A DNA stretch of 64,000 nucleotides from Candidatus Woesearchaeota archaeon (GTDB lineage: Archaea > Nanobdellota > Nanobdellia > SCGC-AAA011-G17 > GW2011-AR17). The notes beneath the pieces are model-generated. The model was not told the origin of the DNA. It saw only the letters and a list, made by a program, of their open reading frames with translations, and made no database searches. Of this stretch, positions 26,497 through 36,275 are shown piece by piece (within the stretch, counting starts at the first letter, position 1; each line of letters starts with the position of its first letter). Location: assembly GCA_016235495.1 (NCBI GenBank), contig JACRKH010000021.1, positions 14,725-78,724 of the forward strand, read 5' to 3'. Made by a program: the position numbers and the translations under genes.

Positions 26497-29385
26497 ATGG
26501 ATGCATTCCTAGAGTTCTATTCGAGAAAAGAGATACAGGAAGCAATACTTTCTATTTGTGAAGATAGAGAAGTCGCCCCTCGATATAATCAAGGATTCGG
26601 CAGAAGGCCGGATATTATTCAGTATCCAGGGGATATTCTAGAGATGGCAAAAAAAGGTGCGACATCCTTTCACATATCTGAAGAGCGCTGGAATAGTCCT
26701 TTGGATCTCAAGCCAGGCATGGCAAAGAAAGATCTTGATGAAAATAGAAAAGGTTGGGATCTTTGCCTTCCTGATTTTGAGAAGATTCATATTATTGAAG
26801 ATGGCCACCTTAAACAGGTTCAAATTGATTATTTAAATAAATTTAAAGGCAAACAAATAGGGGAAGGGGAGTATCTTTTAAATAAAGACATAAAAATTCT
26901 AAGCCTTAACCCTAAAGATTATAAAATCCAACTTGAGAAAGTTACAAAATTCTATATACGAGAGAAAAGACCCCAAGAAAAAGTATTTAAATTAACAGTC
27001 GAAGATGGGAGAATAGCATGGGTAAGCGAAGATCATCCTTTACTGGTTTTCACAAAGGAAGGAATGAAAGAAAAAGTTGCAAAGAGAATAACTTCTGAAG
27101 ATTATCTTATTATAAGCACAAAAATCCCTTCTCAATTCAAATCCCAAGAATATAACCTATTAGATGAAATTTACAAAAAGAAGGAAAGATTTTCTTATAT
27201 GGTTGGGAAAACAATCTTAGTGAACAAATTTTTAATTAAAAACAACAAAAATAATAAGCTGCAAATAAAATCAACAATATCAAAGTATCTTGGTAAGCGG
27301 GGAATACCTATTAATTTTTTTCCTCTTTCAATAAAAAAGCAAAACCTTAGCATAGGAATGAGGCATTGTAAGAATTTTATACCTTCTAGAATAGACTTGA
27401 CGAGGGATTTTGGGTTCTTAGTAGGTATATATCTTGCTGAGGCAGCATCAGGAGGAACTCGTATAGAATTTGCATTGCATCTTAAAGAAAGAGATATAGC
27501 TGAAAGAATAATTTCGATAATTAATAAAACTTTTTCTACACATTTCCTAGCAGAATCTTGTATAGAGCAAAATCAAGAAAATGGCATTCGTGTGAGGATA
27601 AATAGCAAATTATTAGATACAATATTTGTAGACATATTGGCTCTTGGGAAATTAGCATACCACAAAAAAATTCCTTCATGGATATTCAACGCAAATACCT
27701 CTTTTATAGATGGTTTACTTGAGGGTTATTTTGTTGGAGGTGGGCATTCAAGACTAGACTCCAATGGAAAAAGCCTTACCTTTAGCGTTATAAGTGTGAG
27801 CAAGGATCTAATAGAAGGAATATCTTTATTACTCCAAATCAAAGGCATAAATTATAAGATAAGAAAAGATCTCCCTCCTCAAAAAGGAGGTAAAGGTAAG
27901 CATAAAAGGAATATCCTTGCTATTTGTGGAGAAAAAGATATATCCTTGTTATATCAATCTTGCCCAGAGATATTCTTAAGAAAAAGATTATATCTCACTA
28001 GAAAGATTATAAATCATCCTTCATTACATGAAAAGTATCCTCCATTTTTTGATAAAACTAAAGTTACCTATAAATATCTAAAAAATGAAGTTCAAAGAGT
28101 TAACTTTCTTAGAGCTATACGCACTAAGGCAAGGGTAAATGAAAAACTAGCAAAAATAGCCGCAAATTCACATCTATCTAAGATTATGAAGAGCAATGTT
28201 TTTCCCATTCGTTGTAAGAAAATTGAAGAGTTTTCCTATAAAGGGCTTCTCTATGATATCCAAACAGAAAAGAATCATAATTTTCTTCAAGGTGATGGAA
28301 TTTTTTCACATAATTGTTTAGACATAGACACCCCTTATTGGGATTATGCAAAATGGACTGCATACTACCTTGTTGAAGCCCTCAAATTTCATGATGTTAA
28401 AAGTATTTCTATAAAATTCTCTGGAGGAAAAGGCTGGCATATTCTTGTTCCCTTTGAAGCATTCCCTGATGAAGTGAATGGAATAAAAACAAAAAATCTT
28501 TTTCCTGAAGGCCCAAGAATAATTACTGCATACCTAGAAAATATGATTCGTGAAATGCTCACAAATAAAATTTTAGAGAAAGAAGACATCGCCACAATTT
28601 GCCAAAAGACAGGCAAAAAAAGAGCAGAGATAATGAAAGACAACAAATTTGATCCCTTTTCGCTCATAGAAATAGACACAGTGCTTATTTCAAACAGGCA
28701 TTTATTTCGTGCACCATTCTCCATGCATGAAAAATCAGGATTAGTTTCTATTCCCATACTTCTAAATCATATTCTCGATTTTGACAAACGAGAAGCAGAG
28801 CCAAAGAATGTAAAAAAAATTCTTCCCTTCTTGGAAAGAGAAAAAGTAAAAGGCGATGCAAAAAGCCTCATTATCCAAGCATTCGATTGGTGGGGGAAAG
28901 CCCATGCAAAGACAGGTCCAGATAGTATAGCAGCAGAAAAACAAGAATATTATCTTCCCAAGTCCGCAATAATCGAGGCCTATTTCCCTGAATGCATAAA
29001 GAAAATGCTTTCCAATAACCTCGCAGATGGAAAAAAGCGTGCATTATTTGTTTTAGTAAATTTCCTAAACCACATGGGCTGGAGAGAAGAAGATATAAAA
29101 AAGCGCCTTCTAGACTGGAATAGCAAACAGCCTAGTCCTCTACCTCCTTCCTACATTCTTGGACAGCTTTCCTGGCACAAAAAACAGAAAGAGCATATTT
29201 TGCCGCCAAACTGCTCAAATAAAGCATATTATCAGGATATGGGCCTAGCTTGTCCTCCTGCAGTCTGTGCAAGGTACAAAAACCCTGTGAATTGTGCAGT
29301 CCAAACAGAACGCAGAGCAAGAGAAGCAGAGGCTCGGCAGAAGCCCAAAAAAGAGTTGAAAAAGCCTGAAACCAAGCCTTTATAA
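26497..29385 (+). CDS. priS: DNA primase small subunit PriS interrupted by a large intein, with a Cys-rich C-terminal extension
   Basis: Extein motifs GATSFHISEERW, LCLDIDTPYWDYAKW (DxD) and FSGGKGWHILVPFEAF (SGGRGYH). The 517-aa insertion carries intein blocks. Confidence 0.8.
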   Translation: MDAFLEFYSRKEIQEAILSICEDREVAPRYNQGFGRRPDIIQYPGDILEMAKKGATSFHISEERWNSPLDLKPGMAKKDLDENRKGWDLCLPDFEKIHIIEDGHLKQVQIDYLNKFKGKQIGEGEYLLNKDIKILSLNPKDYKIQLEKVTKFYIREKRPQEKVFKLTVEDGRIAWVSEDHPLLVFTKEGMKEKVAKRITSEDYLIISTKIPSQFKSQEYNLLDEIYKKKERFSYMVGKTILVNKFLIKNNKNNKLQIKSTISKYLGKRGIPINFFPLSIKKQNLSIGMRHCKNFIPSRIDLTRDFGFLVGIYLAEAASGGTRIEFALHLKERDIAERIISIINKTFSTHFLAESCIEQNQENGIRVRINSKLLDTIFVDILALGKLAYHKKIPSWIFNANTSFIDGLLEGYFVGGGHSRLDSNGKSLTFSVISVSKDLIEGISLLLQIKGINYKIRKDLPPQKGGKGKHKRNILAICGEKDISLLYQSCPEIFLRKRLYLTRKIINHPSLHEKYPPFFDKTKVTYKYLKNEVQRVNFLRAIRTKARVNEKLAKIAANSHLSKIMKSNVFPIRCKKIEEFSYKGLLYDIQTEKNHNFLQGDGIFSHNCLDIDTPYWDYAKWTAYYLVEALKFHDVKSISIKFSGGKGWHILVPFEAFPDEVNGIKTKNLFPEGPRIITAYLENMIREMLTNKILEKEDIATICQKTGKKRAEIMKDNKFDPFSLIEIDTVLISNRHLFRAPFSMHEKSGLVSIPILLNHILDFDKREAEPKNVKKILPFLEREKVKGDAKSLIIQAFDWWGKAHAKTGPDSIAAEKQEYYLPKSAIIEAYFPECIKKMLSNNLADGKKRALFVLVNFLNHMGWREEDIKKRLLDWNSKQPSPLPPSYILGQLSWHKKQKEHILPPNCSNKAYYQDMGLACPPAVCARYKNPVNCAVQTERRAREAEARQKPKKELKKPETKPL
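26764..28314 (+). mobile_element. Intein (517 aa) with a LAGLIDADG homing-endonuclease domain, inside priS
   Basis: It starts at Cys (tgc, 26764) and ends at HN (aat, 28312-28314) followed by Cys. Block B is VSEDHPLLVF. LAGLIDADG-like motifs are LVGIYLAEAASGG and IDGLLEGYFVGGGHS. The terminal block is LLYDIQTEKNHNF...GIFSHN. Confidence 0.8.
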
Positions 29386-29400
29386 AGAGGCTCTATTCGA

Positions 29401-29736
29401 ATGTATAATATGACATTTGATGATAATACAGCAAGGAGAGCACTGCAGATAGTTTCTCCAGAGATAACACTTGAAGGAACAGAAACTGCAGAAAAAGTAG
29501 AATCATTGCTAGAAAAAGCAATAGAAAATAACTTTTCTCATCTTTTAAGAATCTGGAAACAAAGAGGAGAAGTTTCCTTGATGTCTCTCATTTACAATCT
29601 TCCTGCGAGCGATAGATTTAGAGAATCAGTAGAAGAATACGAAAATGTAGTCTATGCAGCCGCAGCTGTAGTACTTCAAAGAAATGATTTTACCTATAAT
29701 CAAGAAAGATCAACCTGGTATTACAACAAAGCTTAA
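29401..29736 (+). CDS. Hypothetical protein, 111 aa
   Basis: An open frame between priS and the Cas4-like gene. Confidence 0.3.
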   Translation: MYNMTFDDNTARRALQIVSPEITLEGTETAEKVESLLEKAIENNFSHLLRIWKQRGEVSLMSLIYNLPASDRFRESVEEYENVVYAAAAVVLQRNDFTYNQERSTWYYNKA

Positions 29737-29760: not shown

Positions 29761-30582
29761 ATGATTAGTGTCACAGACCTTACTTCGTACATGTATTGTT
29801 CGAGAAAATTATACTTTACAAAAGTCTTAAGAATTCGTGAAAAACCAAAAGAAAAAACAATCAAAGGAACCATTAAGCATCAAGTCTATGATTTGGTAGG
29901 AAGAGAGAACAAAAATATTATTCTGGATTTTACTGCAAAAGAATCTCTGGAAGAATTAGAAATGCGTTTTCGTCGAGTATACTATAAAACATTAATGTTC
30001 TGCATTCAGAGAGCAAAATCGGACTTAGAAGCACAGAAGCTAAAAATGCTTGAACTCTATCAGGAACTCTGGCCATTTTTTTTAGAAGAAGCAAAAGAAC
30101 AAAGTTCTTTCTTTTTTCAATTTGCACAGGAAAAAAATTGTTATGGAGAACAGCTTTGGTTAGCACTTCCCAAAGCAGTATCTGAGCTAAGAATTGTTTC
30201 AGAAAATCTTCGCTTGGTTGGTGTAGTGGATAAACTAGAACTGGAAAAAGATTTCACTCCTGTGGAAATAAAAACAGGAAAAGCACCTAAAGATGGAGTC
30301 TGGAAAGATAACATGGTGCAGCTTGGTGCCTACATGCTTCTTCTCAGCGAACATTATGGCAAAGAAATTAAGGAAGGCTTTATCGACTATAAAGCGATCA
30401 ACGAACGCAGAAAAATCACCATGAATCCTTTTCTCAAAGATGAAATTATAGCATTGATAGACCGAGTCCACATACTTCTCACACAAAAGGAACTTCCTGA
30501 AAAAACCAAAGATGAATGGAAGTGCAAAATATGTGGGATTCGAGAGGAATGCTTCAAAGAAGAAAAGCCAAAAGCTTTATAA
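29761..30582 (+). CDS. Cas4-like / DUF83 RecB-family nuclease with a 4Fe-4S cluster
   Basis: An N-terminal Cys (YMYCSRKLYF) plus a C-terminal C-x2-C-x5-C (CKICGIREEC). Nuclease motifs are VDKLE...VEIKTGK and QLGAYMLLL. Confidence 0.7.
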   Translation: MISVTDLTSYMYCSRKLYFTKVLRIREKPKEKTIKGTIKHQVYDLVGRENKNIILDFTAKESLEELEMRFRRVYYKTLMFCIQRAKSDLEAQKLKMLELYQELWPFFLEEAKEQSSFFFQFAQEKNCYGEQLWLALPKAVSELRIVSENLRLVGVVDKLELEKDFTPVEIKTGKAPKDGVWKDNMVQLGAYMLLLSEHYGKEIKEGFIDYKAINERRKITMNPFLKDEIIALIDRVHILLTQKELPEKTKDEWKCKICGIREECFKEEKPKAL

Positions 30583-30603: not shown

Positions 30604-30724
30604 CTGTGAGCGGCCATAGTGGCCTGGTACCACCTGTTCCCATTTCGAACACAGAAGTGAAATAGGCCGACGTTCCGTTGCTGTACTGCATTAAATGCGG
30701 GAAACTCGGTTCGCTGCTCCACCT
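30604..30724 (+). rRNA. rrf: 5S ribosomal RNA, stand-alone
   Basis: GCGGCCATAGTGGCC...CCATTTCGAACACAGAAGTGAAATAGGCCGAC...GTACTGCATTAAATGCGGGAAACTCGG matches the 5S consensus (loop C/helix III motif, GTACTG). The 5' and 3' ends pair (gagcggc/gctgctc). A T-run terminator follows. Confidence 0.8.
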
Positions 30725-30789: not shown

Positions 30790-31986
30790 ATGCTCTTCGC
30801 ACATTTCTCAGATTGCCATGTAGGTGGATGGAAAGAGGAAAAACTCAAAGATTTGAATATGCAATGTTTTAAGCGTGCAATTGCTTTGGTCATTGAAAAG
30901 CAAGTTGACTTCCTTCTCATCTCTGGAGACCTTTTCAACACAGCCCTGCCACAGATAGACTATATAAAAGAATGCACTTCTGAATTAAAAAAACTCAAAG
31001 ATAAAAACATTCCGGTCTATATGATTGCAGGCTCTCACGATTACTCTCCTAGTGGAAAAACTATGTTAGATGTTCTCGAAAAAGCAGGGCTCATTATGAA
31101 TGTCATGCAGTTCAATGAAGATGGCACATTAAAATTCACTGAAGATAAATCTGGAGCAAAAATTACAGGCATGCTCGGAAAGAAAGGAGGCTTAGAAATC
31201 AGTGACTATGAAACACTAAACACAAAAAGTCTCGAAGAAGAACAAGGCTTCAAAATTTTTATGTTCCACACTGCTATCAATGAATTCAAACCGCAGGGTC
31301 TCGAAGATATGCCAGGTGCAGCCCTTGCGACACTGCCCAACAACTTCCATTATTACGCAGGCGGGCATGTGCACTACATTTTCCAAAAGAATTTCGGGCA
31401 AGGAGTCCTCACTTTTCCCGGCGCACTCTTTCCAAACAACTTCAAAGAAATGGAAGAGTGGCAGAACGGCGGTGTCTACTTTGTCAATGAAAAAACAGAA
31501 TGGAACTATGTTCCCATTAGATTAAAAGAAGTGGTTACATTTAGTCTCGATGTATCAAATCTCAGTCCTGAACAAGCCACAGCAAAAATAATTGAAGAAA
31601 TAAAAAAGAAAGACACGAAAGATGCAATTGTAACCCTCCGTGTGAAAGGAGAGATTGATGGAAAGACTGCTGATCTGAACTTTAAAGAGATTATGGAACA
31701 TTTACAAGGGGCTTATTTTGTATTAAAGAACACAGCAAAGCTGCAGTCAAAATCAACACAAGAAATAACTATGAAGCTTGGGACAATAGAAGAGATCGAG
31801 CAAGAAATTCTTCAAGAATCAAAACAAGAAATCCCACTTAAAGATTTTTCGAAAGAAAAAGAAGATGCTTTTACCATAGATCTCATACAACTTCTCAACA
31901 AAGAAAAGGAAGATGGAGAAAAAGTAGCAGATTTTGAAAAGAGAATAATCTCGGAAGCAGTGAAGGTGCTGGAAATTGAGAATTAA
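30790..31986 (+). CDS. mre11: Mre11 DNA double-strand-break repair nuclease
   Basis: Phosphoesterase motifs HFSDCHVG, GDLF and GSHD. Confidence 0.85.
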   Translation: MLFAHFSDCHVGGWKEEKLKDLNMQCFKRAIALVIEKQVDFLLISGDLFNTALPQIDYIKECTSELKKLKDKNIPVYMIAGSHDYSPSGKTMLDVLEKAGLIMNVMQFNEDGTLKFTEDKSGAKITGMLGKKGGLEISDYETLNTKSLEEEQGFKIFMFHTAINEFKPQGLEDMPGAALATLPNNFHYYAGGHVHYIFQKNFGQGVLTFPGALFPNNFKEMEEWQNGGVYFVNEKTEWNYVPIRLKEVVTFSLDVSNLSPEQATAKIIEEIKKKDTKDAIVTLRVKGEIDGKTADLNFKEIMEHLQGAYFVLKNTAKLQSKSTQEITMKLGTIEEIEQEILQESKQEIPLKDFSKEKEDAFTIDLIQLLNKEKEDGEKVADFEKRIISEAVKVLEIEN

Positions 31987-34027
31987 CAAAATTAAACTAG
32001 AGAATATTCGAAGTTATGTCTCTCAAGAAATTATTTTTCCCGAGGGGAAAGTACTGCTTTGGGGGAACATAGGCTCTGGCAAGAGCAGTATTCTCCACGC
32101 AATAGACTTTGCTCTCTTCGGTCTGCAGCGCTCTGAACTCGCAGGTGCATCACTCTTAAGAAATGGCACTGATGAAGGCACTGTAGAACTCTTCTTCTCC
32201 ATTGACGAAAAGGACTATGTGATAAAAAGAACCCTAAAAAGATCAAAATCTGCAGTCACACAAGATGCAGGATATATTATTCGCAATGGAATAAAGGAAG
32301 AAAAGACAGCAATAGAGCTCAAACAAATAGTTTTAGAATTACTCCATTATCCCAAAGACCTCATTACCAAAAACAAGACTCTTATTTATCGTTACACAGT
32401 CTACACACCGCAGGAGGAAATGAAAACAATCCTTCTTGGAAGCAAGGAAGAAAGACTGGACACTTTAAGAAAAGTATTTGCCGTGGACAAGTACAAAAGA
32501 ATCAAAGAAAATGTCAAAATTATTGTTTCAGATATGAAAGAAAAGAAAAAACTCTATGAAGGCGCAACAGTAGACATACAAGAGAAAATTATCGATAAAG
32601 AAAAAAAATCCCAAGAAAAAATTATCCTTGAGAAAAAACTCACAGAAATACTCATCCCATTAGAAGAACTAAGCAAAATGGTTCAGACAAAAAAAGAAGA
32701 GCTTATACTCCTTGAGGGAAAACGAGAAGAGATTCTCAAAGAAAAACGAGAACTATTTCTTTGGGAAATCGAGTGCAAAAATAAACTAAAAGAAAAAGAA
32801 GAAACAGAACAAAAAATATCTCTTCTCCAACAAGAAATAGTTATTTTAGAGAAGGAAAACCTAGAAACTCCTGATGTAAAAGAGAGTCTTTCAAAAGGAA
32901 ATGAATTGCTCACAGGAAAAGAAAAAGAGCTTCGTGAAATTCTTAACAAAATCCAAGATTGTAAAACCAGGAAAGCTCATGCACTTCTTATCAAACAAAA
33001 GGTAGAGAGTCTTGAGAAATGCCCCACATGTCAGCAGAAAGTTTCGCCTGAACACAAGCATAATATTATCGAAAAAACAAATGCAGAAACGCAAAATCAT
33101 GATAGTGAAATAGCCATTCTCGAAAAGAATCAGCAAACTAGAGAAGAAGAAATGAGAGATCTCCGGGGAGAAATAGATTTACTTCGGAAAAAAGAAAGCG
33201 AAGCAGCAATAAACCTAATGAAAAAGCAGCAACTGCTTAAAAAACGGGGAGAGTGTTTTGAGCTTATGGAAAAACTAACAGGAAATAAAAAATCCCAAGA
33301 GGAACTGAACACAAAAATAGCGGAAGCAAAGGAAAAACAGAAAGATACAGAAACATTAGAAATTTTATACATTGCAAACAAACAAGAAGCAGAACAGCTC
33401 CAGAACAAATATCACACACTCAACCTAGAAAAGGCAACAGTAACTGCAACACTGAACCATTATACACAGACCCTCAATCAATTAACAGAGGAAATTCAAA
33501 AGAAACTAATATTAAGAGAGAAAAAAGAATACCTCAATAAAATTCAATTCTGGTTAACAGATTCCTTCACGCCCTTGTTAGATACAATGGAAAAAAACAT
33601 CCTCTTCAAAGTGCATGCAGAATTCAACAGCCTCTTTGAAAAATGGTTTTCTATACTTATCGACAACCAAAGCCTGCAAATGAGTTTGGATGAAGACTAC
33701 TCCCCAAAAATTCTGCAGAATGACTATGATATCGAGTATGAATATCTTTCTGGTGGAGAGAAAACAGCAGGTGCCTTGGCATACAGATTAGCATTGAACC
33801 AAGTTATTAACAACATGAACACAGGAATAAAAACGAATGACCTCTTAATATTAGACGAACCAACAGATGGCTTTAGTCACGAACAATTAGACCGATTAAA
33901 GATTCTCATGGAAGAAATAAACATTCCACAAATAATTCTTGTCAGTCATGAGGCGCAGATAGAATGCTTTGCTGATCACATTCTTCGCTTTGAAAAACAA
34001 AACCATATCACAAGCCTTGTATCCTAA
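31976..34027 (+). CDS. rad50: Rad50 ATPase
   Basis: Walker A (GNIGSGKSS), long coiled-coil, zinc hook (CPTCQQ), signature (SGGEKTAGALA) and Walker B (LILDEP). It overlaps mre11 by 11 nt. Confidence 0.85.
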   Translation: MRINKIKLENIRSYVSQEIIFPEGKVLLWGNIGSGKSSILHAIDFALFGLQRSELAGASLLRNGTDEGTVELFFSIDEKDYVIKRTLKRSKSAVTQDAGYIIRNGIKEEKTAIELKQIVLELLHYPKDLITKNKTLIYRYTVYTPQEEMKTILLGSKEERLDTLRKVFAVDKYKRIKENVKIIVSDMKEKKKLYEGATVDIQEKIIDKEKKSQEKIILEKKLTEILIPLEELSKMVQTKKEELILLEGKREEILKEKRELFLWEIECKNKLKEKEETEQKISLLQQEIVILEKENLETPDVKESLSKGNELLTGKEKELREILNKIQDCKTRKAHALLIKQKVESLEKCPTCQQKVSPEHKHNIIEKTNAETQNHDSEIAILEKNQQTREEEMRDLRGEIDLLRKKESEAAINLMKKQQLLKKRGECFELMEKLTGNKKSQEELNTKIAEAKEKQKDTETLEILYIANKQEAEQLQNKYHTLNLEKATVTATLNHYTQTLNQLTEEIQKKLILREKKEYLNKIQFWLTDSFTPLLDTMEKNILFKVHAEFNSLFEKWFSILIDNQSLQMSLDEDYSPKILQNDYDIEYEYLSGGEKTAGALAYRLALNQVINNMNTGIKTNDLLILDEPTDGFSHEQLDRLKILMEEINIPQIILVSHEAQIECFADHILRFEKQNHITSLVS

Positions 34028-36149: not shown

Positions 36150-36275
36150 CCCCACGTAGCTTAATGGTTTGAGCACTTGGCTGTAGATAAATTCCCCTTT
36201 TGACACTGCAAAGCAGAGGATGAAATAAGGGTAGCTGAACCCGAGAGGTTCCTGGTTCGAGTCCGGGCGTGGGGA
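36150..36275 (+). tRNA. tRNA-Tyr (anticodon GTA) with a ~53-nt canonical-position intron (about 36188-36240)
   Basis: Acceptor ccccacg/cgtgggg (C1:G72, the archaeal Tyr identity pair), D-arm gctt..gagc, anticodon stem cttgg/ccgag with loop ctGTAga, T-arm cctgg-ttcgagt-ccggg, discriminator A. Confidence 0.7.

Follow-up and report, generated by a model that had tools for sequence, protein, structure and literature searches.

What has opened the catalytic strand of a primase in a woesearchaeal contig, and what can the inserted element still do? The gene lies in a window of 64,000 nt (the whole stretch of DNA that was analyzed, to which all positions refer unless another locus is named) from a metagenome-assembled contig of Candidatus Woesearchaeota archaeon, a member of DPANN. 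Its 962-aa product is deposited as MBI5797576.1, "hypothetical protein HZA98_01580," on a contig of 79 kb, so the primase of the source genome is currently unannotated. We present here the interrupting element, an intein of 517 aa in motif I of this primase. With high probability it is a canonical class 1 intein of a single-chain primase, predicted to splice by the standard route, with an endonuclease that is probably dead and an inheritance that would now be vertical.

An intein in motif I of a monomeric primase

The precursor was aligned with 13 intein-free homologues, and the sole large gap falls exactly on residues 90 to 606. This segment begins with Cys90, ends with His605-Asn606, and is followed by Cys607. 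It is inserted in frame, its removal joins ...GWDL to CLDIDT... and restores motif I of a conserved host protein, and alleles without it exist. Pfam Intein_splicing matches precursor residues 102 to 606 (E value, 2e-18; 67 bits against a cutoff of 35.8), and both Pfam LAGLIDADG_3 (E value, 2e-8; 34.7 bits; cutoff, 22.5) and NCBIfam intein_Cterm (25.1 bits; cutoff, 15.6) score above their cutoffs. Strong partial matches were obtained to NCBIfam models of intein-containing proteins (Tes, RpoA'', and the PolD large subunit; E values, 1e-21 to 5e-27). The layout is that of a Hint splicing domain split by a LAGLIDADG endonuclease domain and accessory regions. The features of class 1 were found throughout: Cys as the first residue, the block B His, and blocks F and G ending in HN before Cys+1, in a Hint fold. 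Block B has the motif S88-E-D-H91 (numbered within the intein), a TxxH type in which Thr is replaced by Ser throughout the family of alleles at this insertion point, here called site a. Block F carries the string LLYDIQTEKNHNF, block G follows with GIFSHN, and the C-terminal pattern is YD498...NH505NF...GIFSH516N517.

An AlphaFold2 model of the intein, with an alignment of ten related inteins as input, reached a predicted local distance difference test (pLDDT) score of 80.5 and a predicted template modeling (pTM) score of 0.84. Both Hint lobes (intein residues 1 to 120 and 478 to 517) exceed a pLDDT of 90, and the endonuclease core (approximately residues 210 to 400) is mostly confident; weak stretches lie at residues 163 to 175, 370 to 380, and 412 to 456. 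Foldseek placed PI-PkoII first (PDB 2cw7; E value, 1e-25; template modeling [TM] score, 0.65) and also returned TliVMA, PhoVMA, PI-PfuI, and PI-SceI, along with mini-inteins, and the endonuclease core matched the free-standing enzymes I-DmoI and I-Tsp061I. The G+C content of the intein is 0.31 (0.23 at third codon positions, GC3), compared with 0.41 and 0.39 for the N- and C-exteins (GC3, 0.33 to 0.34) and 0.37 for the window, which fits a foreign origin or relaxed constraint. Comparison of the intein with phage sequences gave two weak partial matches (24 to 25% identity), which do not indicate a phage origin. A profile scan of all six-frame open reading frames (ORFs) of at least 100 aa found no further intein in the window.

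An earlier, sequence-only reading of this DNA had proposed just such an intein, with a Cys start, an HN end before Cys, the block strings given above (VSEDHPLLVF for block B), two LAGLIDADG-like motifs, and restoration of motif I upon removal. Its coordinates and residues are correct and agree with the alignment gap, blocks A, B, F, and G were found, and both motifs are present by sequence and by the LAGLIDADG_3 score. The profile search that it advised bore it out, and so did the search for intein-free alleles, which turned up an empty site at a syntenic locus and many intein-free homologues. The competing idea that it raised, a lineage-specific domain without intein blocks, was not seen, since the blocks are present and the gap is exact at both junctions.

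Once the intein is removed, residues 1 to 89 and 607 to 962 form a protein of 445 aa. More than 2300 homologues of it were found, in assemblies of Woesearchaeota and Nanoarchaeota. The best 120 of these are 416 to 513 aa long, cover 91 to 100% of the query with up to 73% identity, and, where named, belong to Woesearchaeota, Nanoarchaeota, or unclassified "archaeon" assemblies. None of 101 intein-free homologues departs from the motif I aspartates D92 and D94 (extein numbering). Position 90, here Cys+1, is Ile in 68, Val in 23, Leu in 9, and Phe in 1 of these and never Cys, Ser, or Thr, so that their junction reads ...GWDL-(I/V/L)-LDIDT.... Motif II is KFSGGKGWH, with S125, G126, G129, and H131 invariant; motif III is RHLFRAPFSMHEKSG (R217, H218, S225, E228, and K229), with R217 and H218 invariant, and the motif II/III region aligns to human and Tetrahymena Pri1. 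Pfam DNA_primase_S matches the part of the precursor that follows the insertion (E value, 3e-7) and passes its cutoff (32 bits against 26.8). Scores for the NCBIfam PriS equivalog models fall far under their cutoffs, so the host is a divergent member of the archaeo-eukaryotic primases (AEPs). The AlphaFold2 model of the excised product has a mean pLDDT of 91.2, and all 50 of the PDB matches listed by Foldseek (62 at an E value of ≤0.001) are AEP enzymes, including Prim-PolC, human and yeast Pri1, Pyrococcus PriS, and LigD polymerase domains. The C-terminal region resembles the PriL C-terminal domain and contains four Cys residues (C316, C389, C402, and C407), presumed to be 4Fe-4S ligands, of which C316, C389, and C407 are invariant. 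Many close homologues carry precomputed matches to PF01896 and PF04104.

What the intein interrupts is the DPANN type of primase, a monomeric PriS-PriL fusion. The sequence-only reading had called this host PriS, which was right as to the AEP catalytic domain, but it is not plain PriS; the fusion family measures approximately 430 to 450 aa, so the extein is of normal length. Such single chains are the replicative primase of Nanoarchaeum and of DPANN cluster II, where they replace the two-subunit enzyme (PMC3973330; 10.64898/2026.06.17.729505). The fusion is described as the only replicative primase of DPANN cluster II (10.64898/2026.06.17.729505), which implies a need for the spliced product. 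As a separate observation, an insertion of 60 to 100 aa with several CxxC pairs (zinc-ribbon-like) lies between motifs II and III in P0152, P0169, P0183, P0198, P0222, P0233, and P0270; it is common among the primase homologues and is missing in the window protein and its closest relatives.

L89 and residue 90 flank the insertion point, which precedes the first catalytic Asp by two residues. The earlier placement at the catalytic DxD holds in that the site is inside the motif I strand, but it is not between the aspartates. Residues 89 to 94 of the excised product are modeled as one beta strand, which carries the DxD and is, by this model, the strand that the intein opens; with the insertion at its start, the precursor should be unable to form the active site. 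Splicing would begin with an N-S acyl shift at Cys1, followed by trans-thioesterification to Cys+1 and by cyclization of Asn517, aided by His516. An S-N shift would then join ...GWDL to CLDIDT..., freeing the 445-aa active primase and the intein. Coordinates are collected in Table 1.

TABLE 1 Features of the interrupted primase gene and its surroundings in the window
Feature	Position	Strand	Details and basis
Precursor ORF	26497-29385	+	962 aa plus stop, uninterrupted frame; intein-interrupted monomeric PriS-PriL primase
N-extein	26497-26763	+	aa 1-89, ending ...ENRKGWDL; colinear with N termini of intein-free homologues
Intein	26764-28314	+	517 aa, precursor residues 90-606; Pfam, NCBIfam, exact alignment gap, AlphaFold2 model, Foldseek, composition
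Block A	26764-26805	+	CLPDFEKIHIIEDG; Cys1 (codon 26764-26766), first splicing nucleophile, kept in 6/6 full-length site-a inteins
Block B	27007-27051	+	GRIAWVSEDHPLLVF; Ser88 and His91; S.DHP common to all site-a inteins
LAGLIDADG motif 1	27415-27456	+	FLVGIYLAEAASGG; intein residues 218-231; Glu226 kept, next Gly replaced by Ala227; site-a and wider alignments
LAGLIDADG motif 2	27703-27750	+	FIDGLLEGYFVGGGHS; intein residues 314-329; catalytic Asp replaced by Gly326 (codon 27739-27741); PI-PkoII and site-a alignments
Private insertion	27868-27897	+	DLPPQKGGKG, 10 aa, endonuclease domain; none in other site-a inteins; low-confidence loop in model
Blocks F and G	28246-28314	+	LLYDIQTEKNHNFLQG ... 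GIFSHN; Asp498, His505, His516, terminal Asn517; NCBIfam, alignments
C-extein start, motif I	28315-28329	+	Cys+1 (28315-28317), then L-D-I-D; Asp92 (28321-28323), Asp94 (28327-28329); hhhDhD
Rest of AEP catalytic domain	28315-28959	+	Motifs II and III; Pfam DNA_primase_S, invariant columns, AEP fold matches
PriL C-terminal-domain-like region	28960-29307	+	Helical; weak NCBIfam PriL match (E value, 0.012); four Cys
Small ORF	29401-29736		Directly 3' of primase; no Pfam match
Cas4-like nuclease	29761-30582		PD-(D/E)XK
5S rRNA	30606-30722	+	Lone gene
Mre11-like/Rad50-like pair	30790-34027
tRNA	36150-36275	+	126 nt; 47.6 bits in Rfam

Related inteins and empty alleles

Relatives were collected by an exhaustive HMMER search of the full precursor against 1.84 billion representatives, and pattern scans of GTDB and of JGI/ENA metagenomes added loci. 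Intein-bearing homologues are a minority in the HMMER search, and the large majority is intein-free. Homologous inteins at site a were found in seven other sequences from at least six further metagenomic lineages: L001 (= P0123, from the metagenome-assembled genome [MAG] nzgw41), L002/L006 (Woesearchaeota, Hainich groundwater), L007, L008, L009/L010, L011, and P0124, with the junction GWD(L/A)-C...HN-C(L/I/V)D(L/I/V)D. All seven share the architecture, Cys1, S.DHP, YD...N.NF, HN, and Cys+1. The six full-length site-a inteins, that of the window included, are 508 to 517 aa long, colinear, and 36 to 56% identical to one another. The window intein shares 36 to 39% identity with each of the other five and 36 to 44% over the whole site-a list.

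The nearest extein relatives of the window protein, L001, and L006 are intein-free (73%, 77%, and 58% identity, respectively), and other carriers reach at most 53% extein identity to these three; L007, L008, and L010 form one carrier clade in the extein comparison. Thus, the site-a allele has a patchy distribution that takes in at least four lineages. Exteins of the other carriers are 39 to 50% identical to the window extein, whereas its nearest relative lacks the intein. In this relative (P0001), the site is empty and the primase has the same gene neighborhood, with genes for an L14e-like KOW protein, prefoldin, the primase, a small ORF, a Cas4-like nuclease, and an Mre11-like protein; the junction DNA of P0001 is identical to the spliced junction of the window gene at 51 of 72 positions. 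The empty-site sequence of L038 is ...AAAGGCTGGGATCTTGTCTTGGATATCGAT..., also given as ...CGAAAAGGCTGGGATCTTGTCTTGGATATCGATGTT....

One of 186 intein-free homologues has Cys at the +1 position, where the others have I, V, L, F, or M. It belongs to a Nanoarchaeia MAG (P0012; positions 1 to 1252 of L036, ENA ERZ27254767 k141_1079115, which equals L037, GCA_035288605.1, DATDZU010000084.1) and is followed by the same small ORF and Cas4-like gene. The protein reads RRGWDL-C-LDIDTPYWDY, which is the predicted ligated junction save for a conservative change of Lys to Arg four residues before it. An otherwise ordinary primase with Cys at this position exists in nature. The simplest reading of its sequence is that the Cys is the footprint of a precise intein loss; it may also have arisen by convergence.

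These alleles suggest a history for the element. In the past, a double-motif LAGLIDADG endonuclease of the PI-PkoII/PI-PfuI type would have cut the empty GWDL-(I/V/L)LDID coding sequence, and, because empty alleles have I, V, or L at the +1 position, repair of the cut would also have copied the Cys codon. At present, the element would be inherited vertically, with nothing to keep the intein in place but the ruin that an imprecise loss would bring to an essential active site. The set of alleles appears to catch the stages of an intein life cycle: empty, occupied with intact endonuclease motifs, occupied with a damaged endonuclease, and empty with a Cys "scar."

State of the endonuclease and alternative explanations

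By Pfam and Foldseek, the endonuclease domain has two LAGLIDADG helices in one chain with an alpha-beta-beta-alpha-beta-beta-alpha core fold. Of the catalytic acids that should end the two motifs, Glu226 of motif 1 is kept, and motif 2 has Gly326. LEGYFIGDGD of PI-PkoII aligns to LEGYFVGGGH of the window intein, and the Gly codon (GGT) is one transition away from GAT (Asp). In the eight-sequence site-a alignment, the other sequences that cover the motifs have GYYL(A/S)EG and GDG (the latter in all six that cover motif 2), compared with GIYLAEA and GGG in the window intein. In a wider alignment, which includes primase inteins at two other sites (b and c, described below) and RpoA'' and ABC-ATPase inteins, the window intein alone lacks any motif 2 acid, as eight of the other nine have GDG or CDG and P0122 has GAD; no other sequence of this alignment has Ala next to the motif 1 acid, on its C-terminal side. 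Its private departures from otherwise invariant columns number 26, versus 1 to 16 in the other site-a inteins, a count that partly reflects its position as the most divergent sequence. Two further motif 1 residues considered as signs of decay (K218F and Y222I) were rejected, since an RpoA'' intein has FGFLVGIYLA as well.

Neither PI-SceI nor I-DmoI makes double-strand cuts once one of its two catalytic acids is lost. Given the motif 2 Gly, the Gly-to-Ala change after the motif 1 acid, and the private 10-aa insertion, the endonuclease of the window intein is most likely inactive or at best a nickase; the domain has the LAGLIDADG fold and, from its sequence, is probably not an active member of the family. 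All splicing residues are intact, and splicing has presumably been retained; by analogy with LAGLIDADG enzymology, homing has probably been lost. That the endonuclease is still active and the element currently mobile is unlikely: an intact ORF, a core modeled for the most part with high confidence, the retained Glu226, and the patchy distribution over lineages are what such an element would have, but the missing motif 2 acid, which PI-PkoII and the other covering site-a inteins keep, the altered close of motif 1, the low-confidence insertion, the private departures (partly due to the outlying position), and the precedent of PI-SceI and I-DmoI all speak against it.

A decayed-looking endonuclease beside intact splicing residues also fits retention by something other than homing. 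One proposal is that the intein has been co-opted as a conditional switch, in which a Cys1/Cys+1 disulfide or other redox or stress sensing gates the primase and hence replication. Both junction nucleophiles are indeed Cys, insertion at the catalytic strand would leave the precursor inactive, and redox-controlled splicing is documented for other replication-protein inteins (PMC6195587). The proposal is nevertheless improbable, as the same pattern is expected of any intein trapped in an essential active site and close relatives manage without one. The DPANN host is a reduced-genome archaeon of a mostly ectosymbiotic group. A broader form, in which the intein is a posttranslational gate on priming and splicing of the cell's only primase answers redox or other environmental conditions, draws on the decayed endonuclease and the Cys junctions and is, if anything, slightly more improbable. 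If it were true, inteins in all three primase motifs would reflect selection for control and not just selfish safe harbors.

It is very improbable that the 517-aa segment is a retained lineage-specific domain or a splicing-dead remnant or that the gene is a pseudogene. Such a view could draw on splicing being predicted only and on the Ser that replaces Thr in block B. All catalytic splicing residues are kept, both here and in the seven related sequences, and a strand with the invariant DxD split in two is hard to square with activity; the exteins are strongly conserved, with 73% full-length identity to an intein-free orthologue, and the frame is intact. An assembly artifact, a chimeric contig that joined a primase to the intein of another gene, is scarcely credible, for although the source is metagenome assembled and the intein is lower in G+C than its exteins, both junctions are in frame and codon exact, the same site and architecture recur in independent assemblies of other samples (L001, L006, L007, L008, and L010), and low G+C is common in inteins and mobile DNA.

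Several points nonetheless weigh against the preferred reading of a splicing intein with a dead endonuclease in an essential gene. Splicing itself is a prediction from sequence. Block B has Ser for the usual Thr, which is probably tolerated, as all site-a relatives have it. The inactivity of the endonuclease is read from one substitution in alignments. An acidic residue elsewhere could make up for it, and, as the contig is metagenome assembled, the GGT codon itself may contain one wrongly assembled base. Finally, the data are those of the window, and the rest of the genome may hold a second, uninterrupted primase.

Genomic setting and comparison with known systems

Upstream of the primase are genes for ribosomal protein L34e, a KOW protein, and a prefoldin subunit; downstream follow the small ORF, the Cas4-like nuclease, 5S rRNA, and the Mre11- and Rad50-like genes, in that order. 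The small ORF and Cas4-like pair is also adjacent to the primase in two relatives (L036, 1274 to 2422; L038, 4356 to 5499), and the small ORF encodes 103 to 111 aa without a Pfam match in the window and in both relatives. No rRNA gene adjoins the lone 5S rRNA gene, which stands between the Cas4-like gene and the Mre11-like/Rad50-like pair. The tRNA listed in Table 1 is absent from the ARAGORN output and is probably an intron-containing archaeal tRNA.

Inteins also interrupt the same primase family at two further points. Site b, in motif II, is occupied in P0125, P0126, P0171, and P0270 (KF-S...LLHN-SGNKGFH, with hyphens marking the junctions), and site c, in motif III, is occupied in P0183 (PY-S...LLHN-SLHEKTG); Pfam Intein_splicing and LAGLIDADG_3 match all three of the site-b and -c proteins scanned. 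Inteins of this family hit all three catalytic motifs, I, II, and III. Those at sites b and c are 20 to 23% identical to the window intein and begin with Ser, with a native Ser that is conserved in the host serving as nucleophile at +1, whereas site a has Cys at a position that is I, V, or L in empty alleles. As site a offers no native nucleophile, the Cys codon has to be brought in along with the intein whenever homing fills an empty allele.

Inteins cluster in replisome proteins. In a 2016 intein-clustering survey (PMC4760082), the archaeal network figure shows primase and PCNA as the core components of the fork that lack inteins, and its legend counts "Pri, primase" among the critical proteins with none. 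The primases reported as intein hosts are only bacterial DnaG and phage TOPRIM primases, whose fold is unrelated to AEP. A full-text literature search, with subscription journals and InBase outside its scope, turned up no paper that describes an archaeal or AEP primase with an intein. The sequence-only reading had suggested that the site and its allele may be new. This stands for the literature searched and fails for the public databases, as homologous site-a inteins occur in at least six other public lineages; the allele is already in several public assemblies, unannotated. The kind of element is conventional, and the understanding of how inteins work is unchanged by it; what is new is the host, the site, and the three-site pattern in one enzyme. 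Archaeal primase joins the proteins that host inteins, with three sites that match AEP motifs I, II, and III, and the pattern of inteins in the active sites of replication enzymes extends to another fork component. In practical terms, it offers protein engineering a candidate new Cys1/Cys+1 intein whose source is presumably mesophilic.

Among known primases, the fusion enzymes of Nanoarchaeum equitans and DPANN cluster II and PolpTN2 of Thermococcus plasmid pTN2 have the same order as the excised product, an N-terminal AEP domain with motifs I to III followed by a PriL C-terminal-domain-like region with four Cys residues. The fusion primase literature searched does not mention inteins, whereas the window gene carries one. 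The other site-a inteins differ from that of the window in keeping the consensus catalytic residues of both LAGLIDADG motifs where these are covered and in lacking the 10-aa insertion.

Nearest among the non-primase inteins that sequence searches found are those of RpoA'' (P0121, P0122, and P0274) and of an ABC-ATPase (P0273), with 23 to 36% local identity. The likeness does not go beyond the Hint blocks and endonuclease core, and the host genes differ; P0122 is the RpoA'' intein that shares the ten-residue motif 1 string with the window intein. As a side observation, P0122 ends in ...NGLNVVD and not in His-Asn, and its motif 2 is GAD and not GDG; it may be a noncanonical or decayed intein.

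The closest characterized systems are PI-PkoII (intein 2 of Thermococcus kodakarensis PolB, 2cw7), PI-PfuI (1dq3), and the Thermococcus and Pyrococcus VMA inteins (7qss and 7qst), which are likewise class 1 and combine a Hint domain, a double-motif LAGLIDADG endonuclease, and extra DNA-binding regions. Like the window intein, they all interrupt catalytic motifs, their hosts being replication proteins or ATPases. PI-PkoII is the best PDB match by sequence (E value, 3.5e-8), and structural matches to the group have E values of 1e-25 to 2e-17 and TM scores of 0.53 to 0.65, with 13 to 16% identity over the structural alignment. Their hosts and sites differ from those of the window intein, and motif 2 of PI-PkoII is GDG, compared with GGG here.

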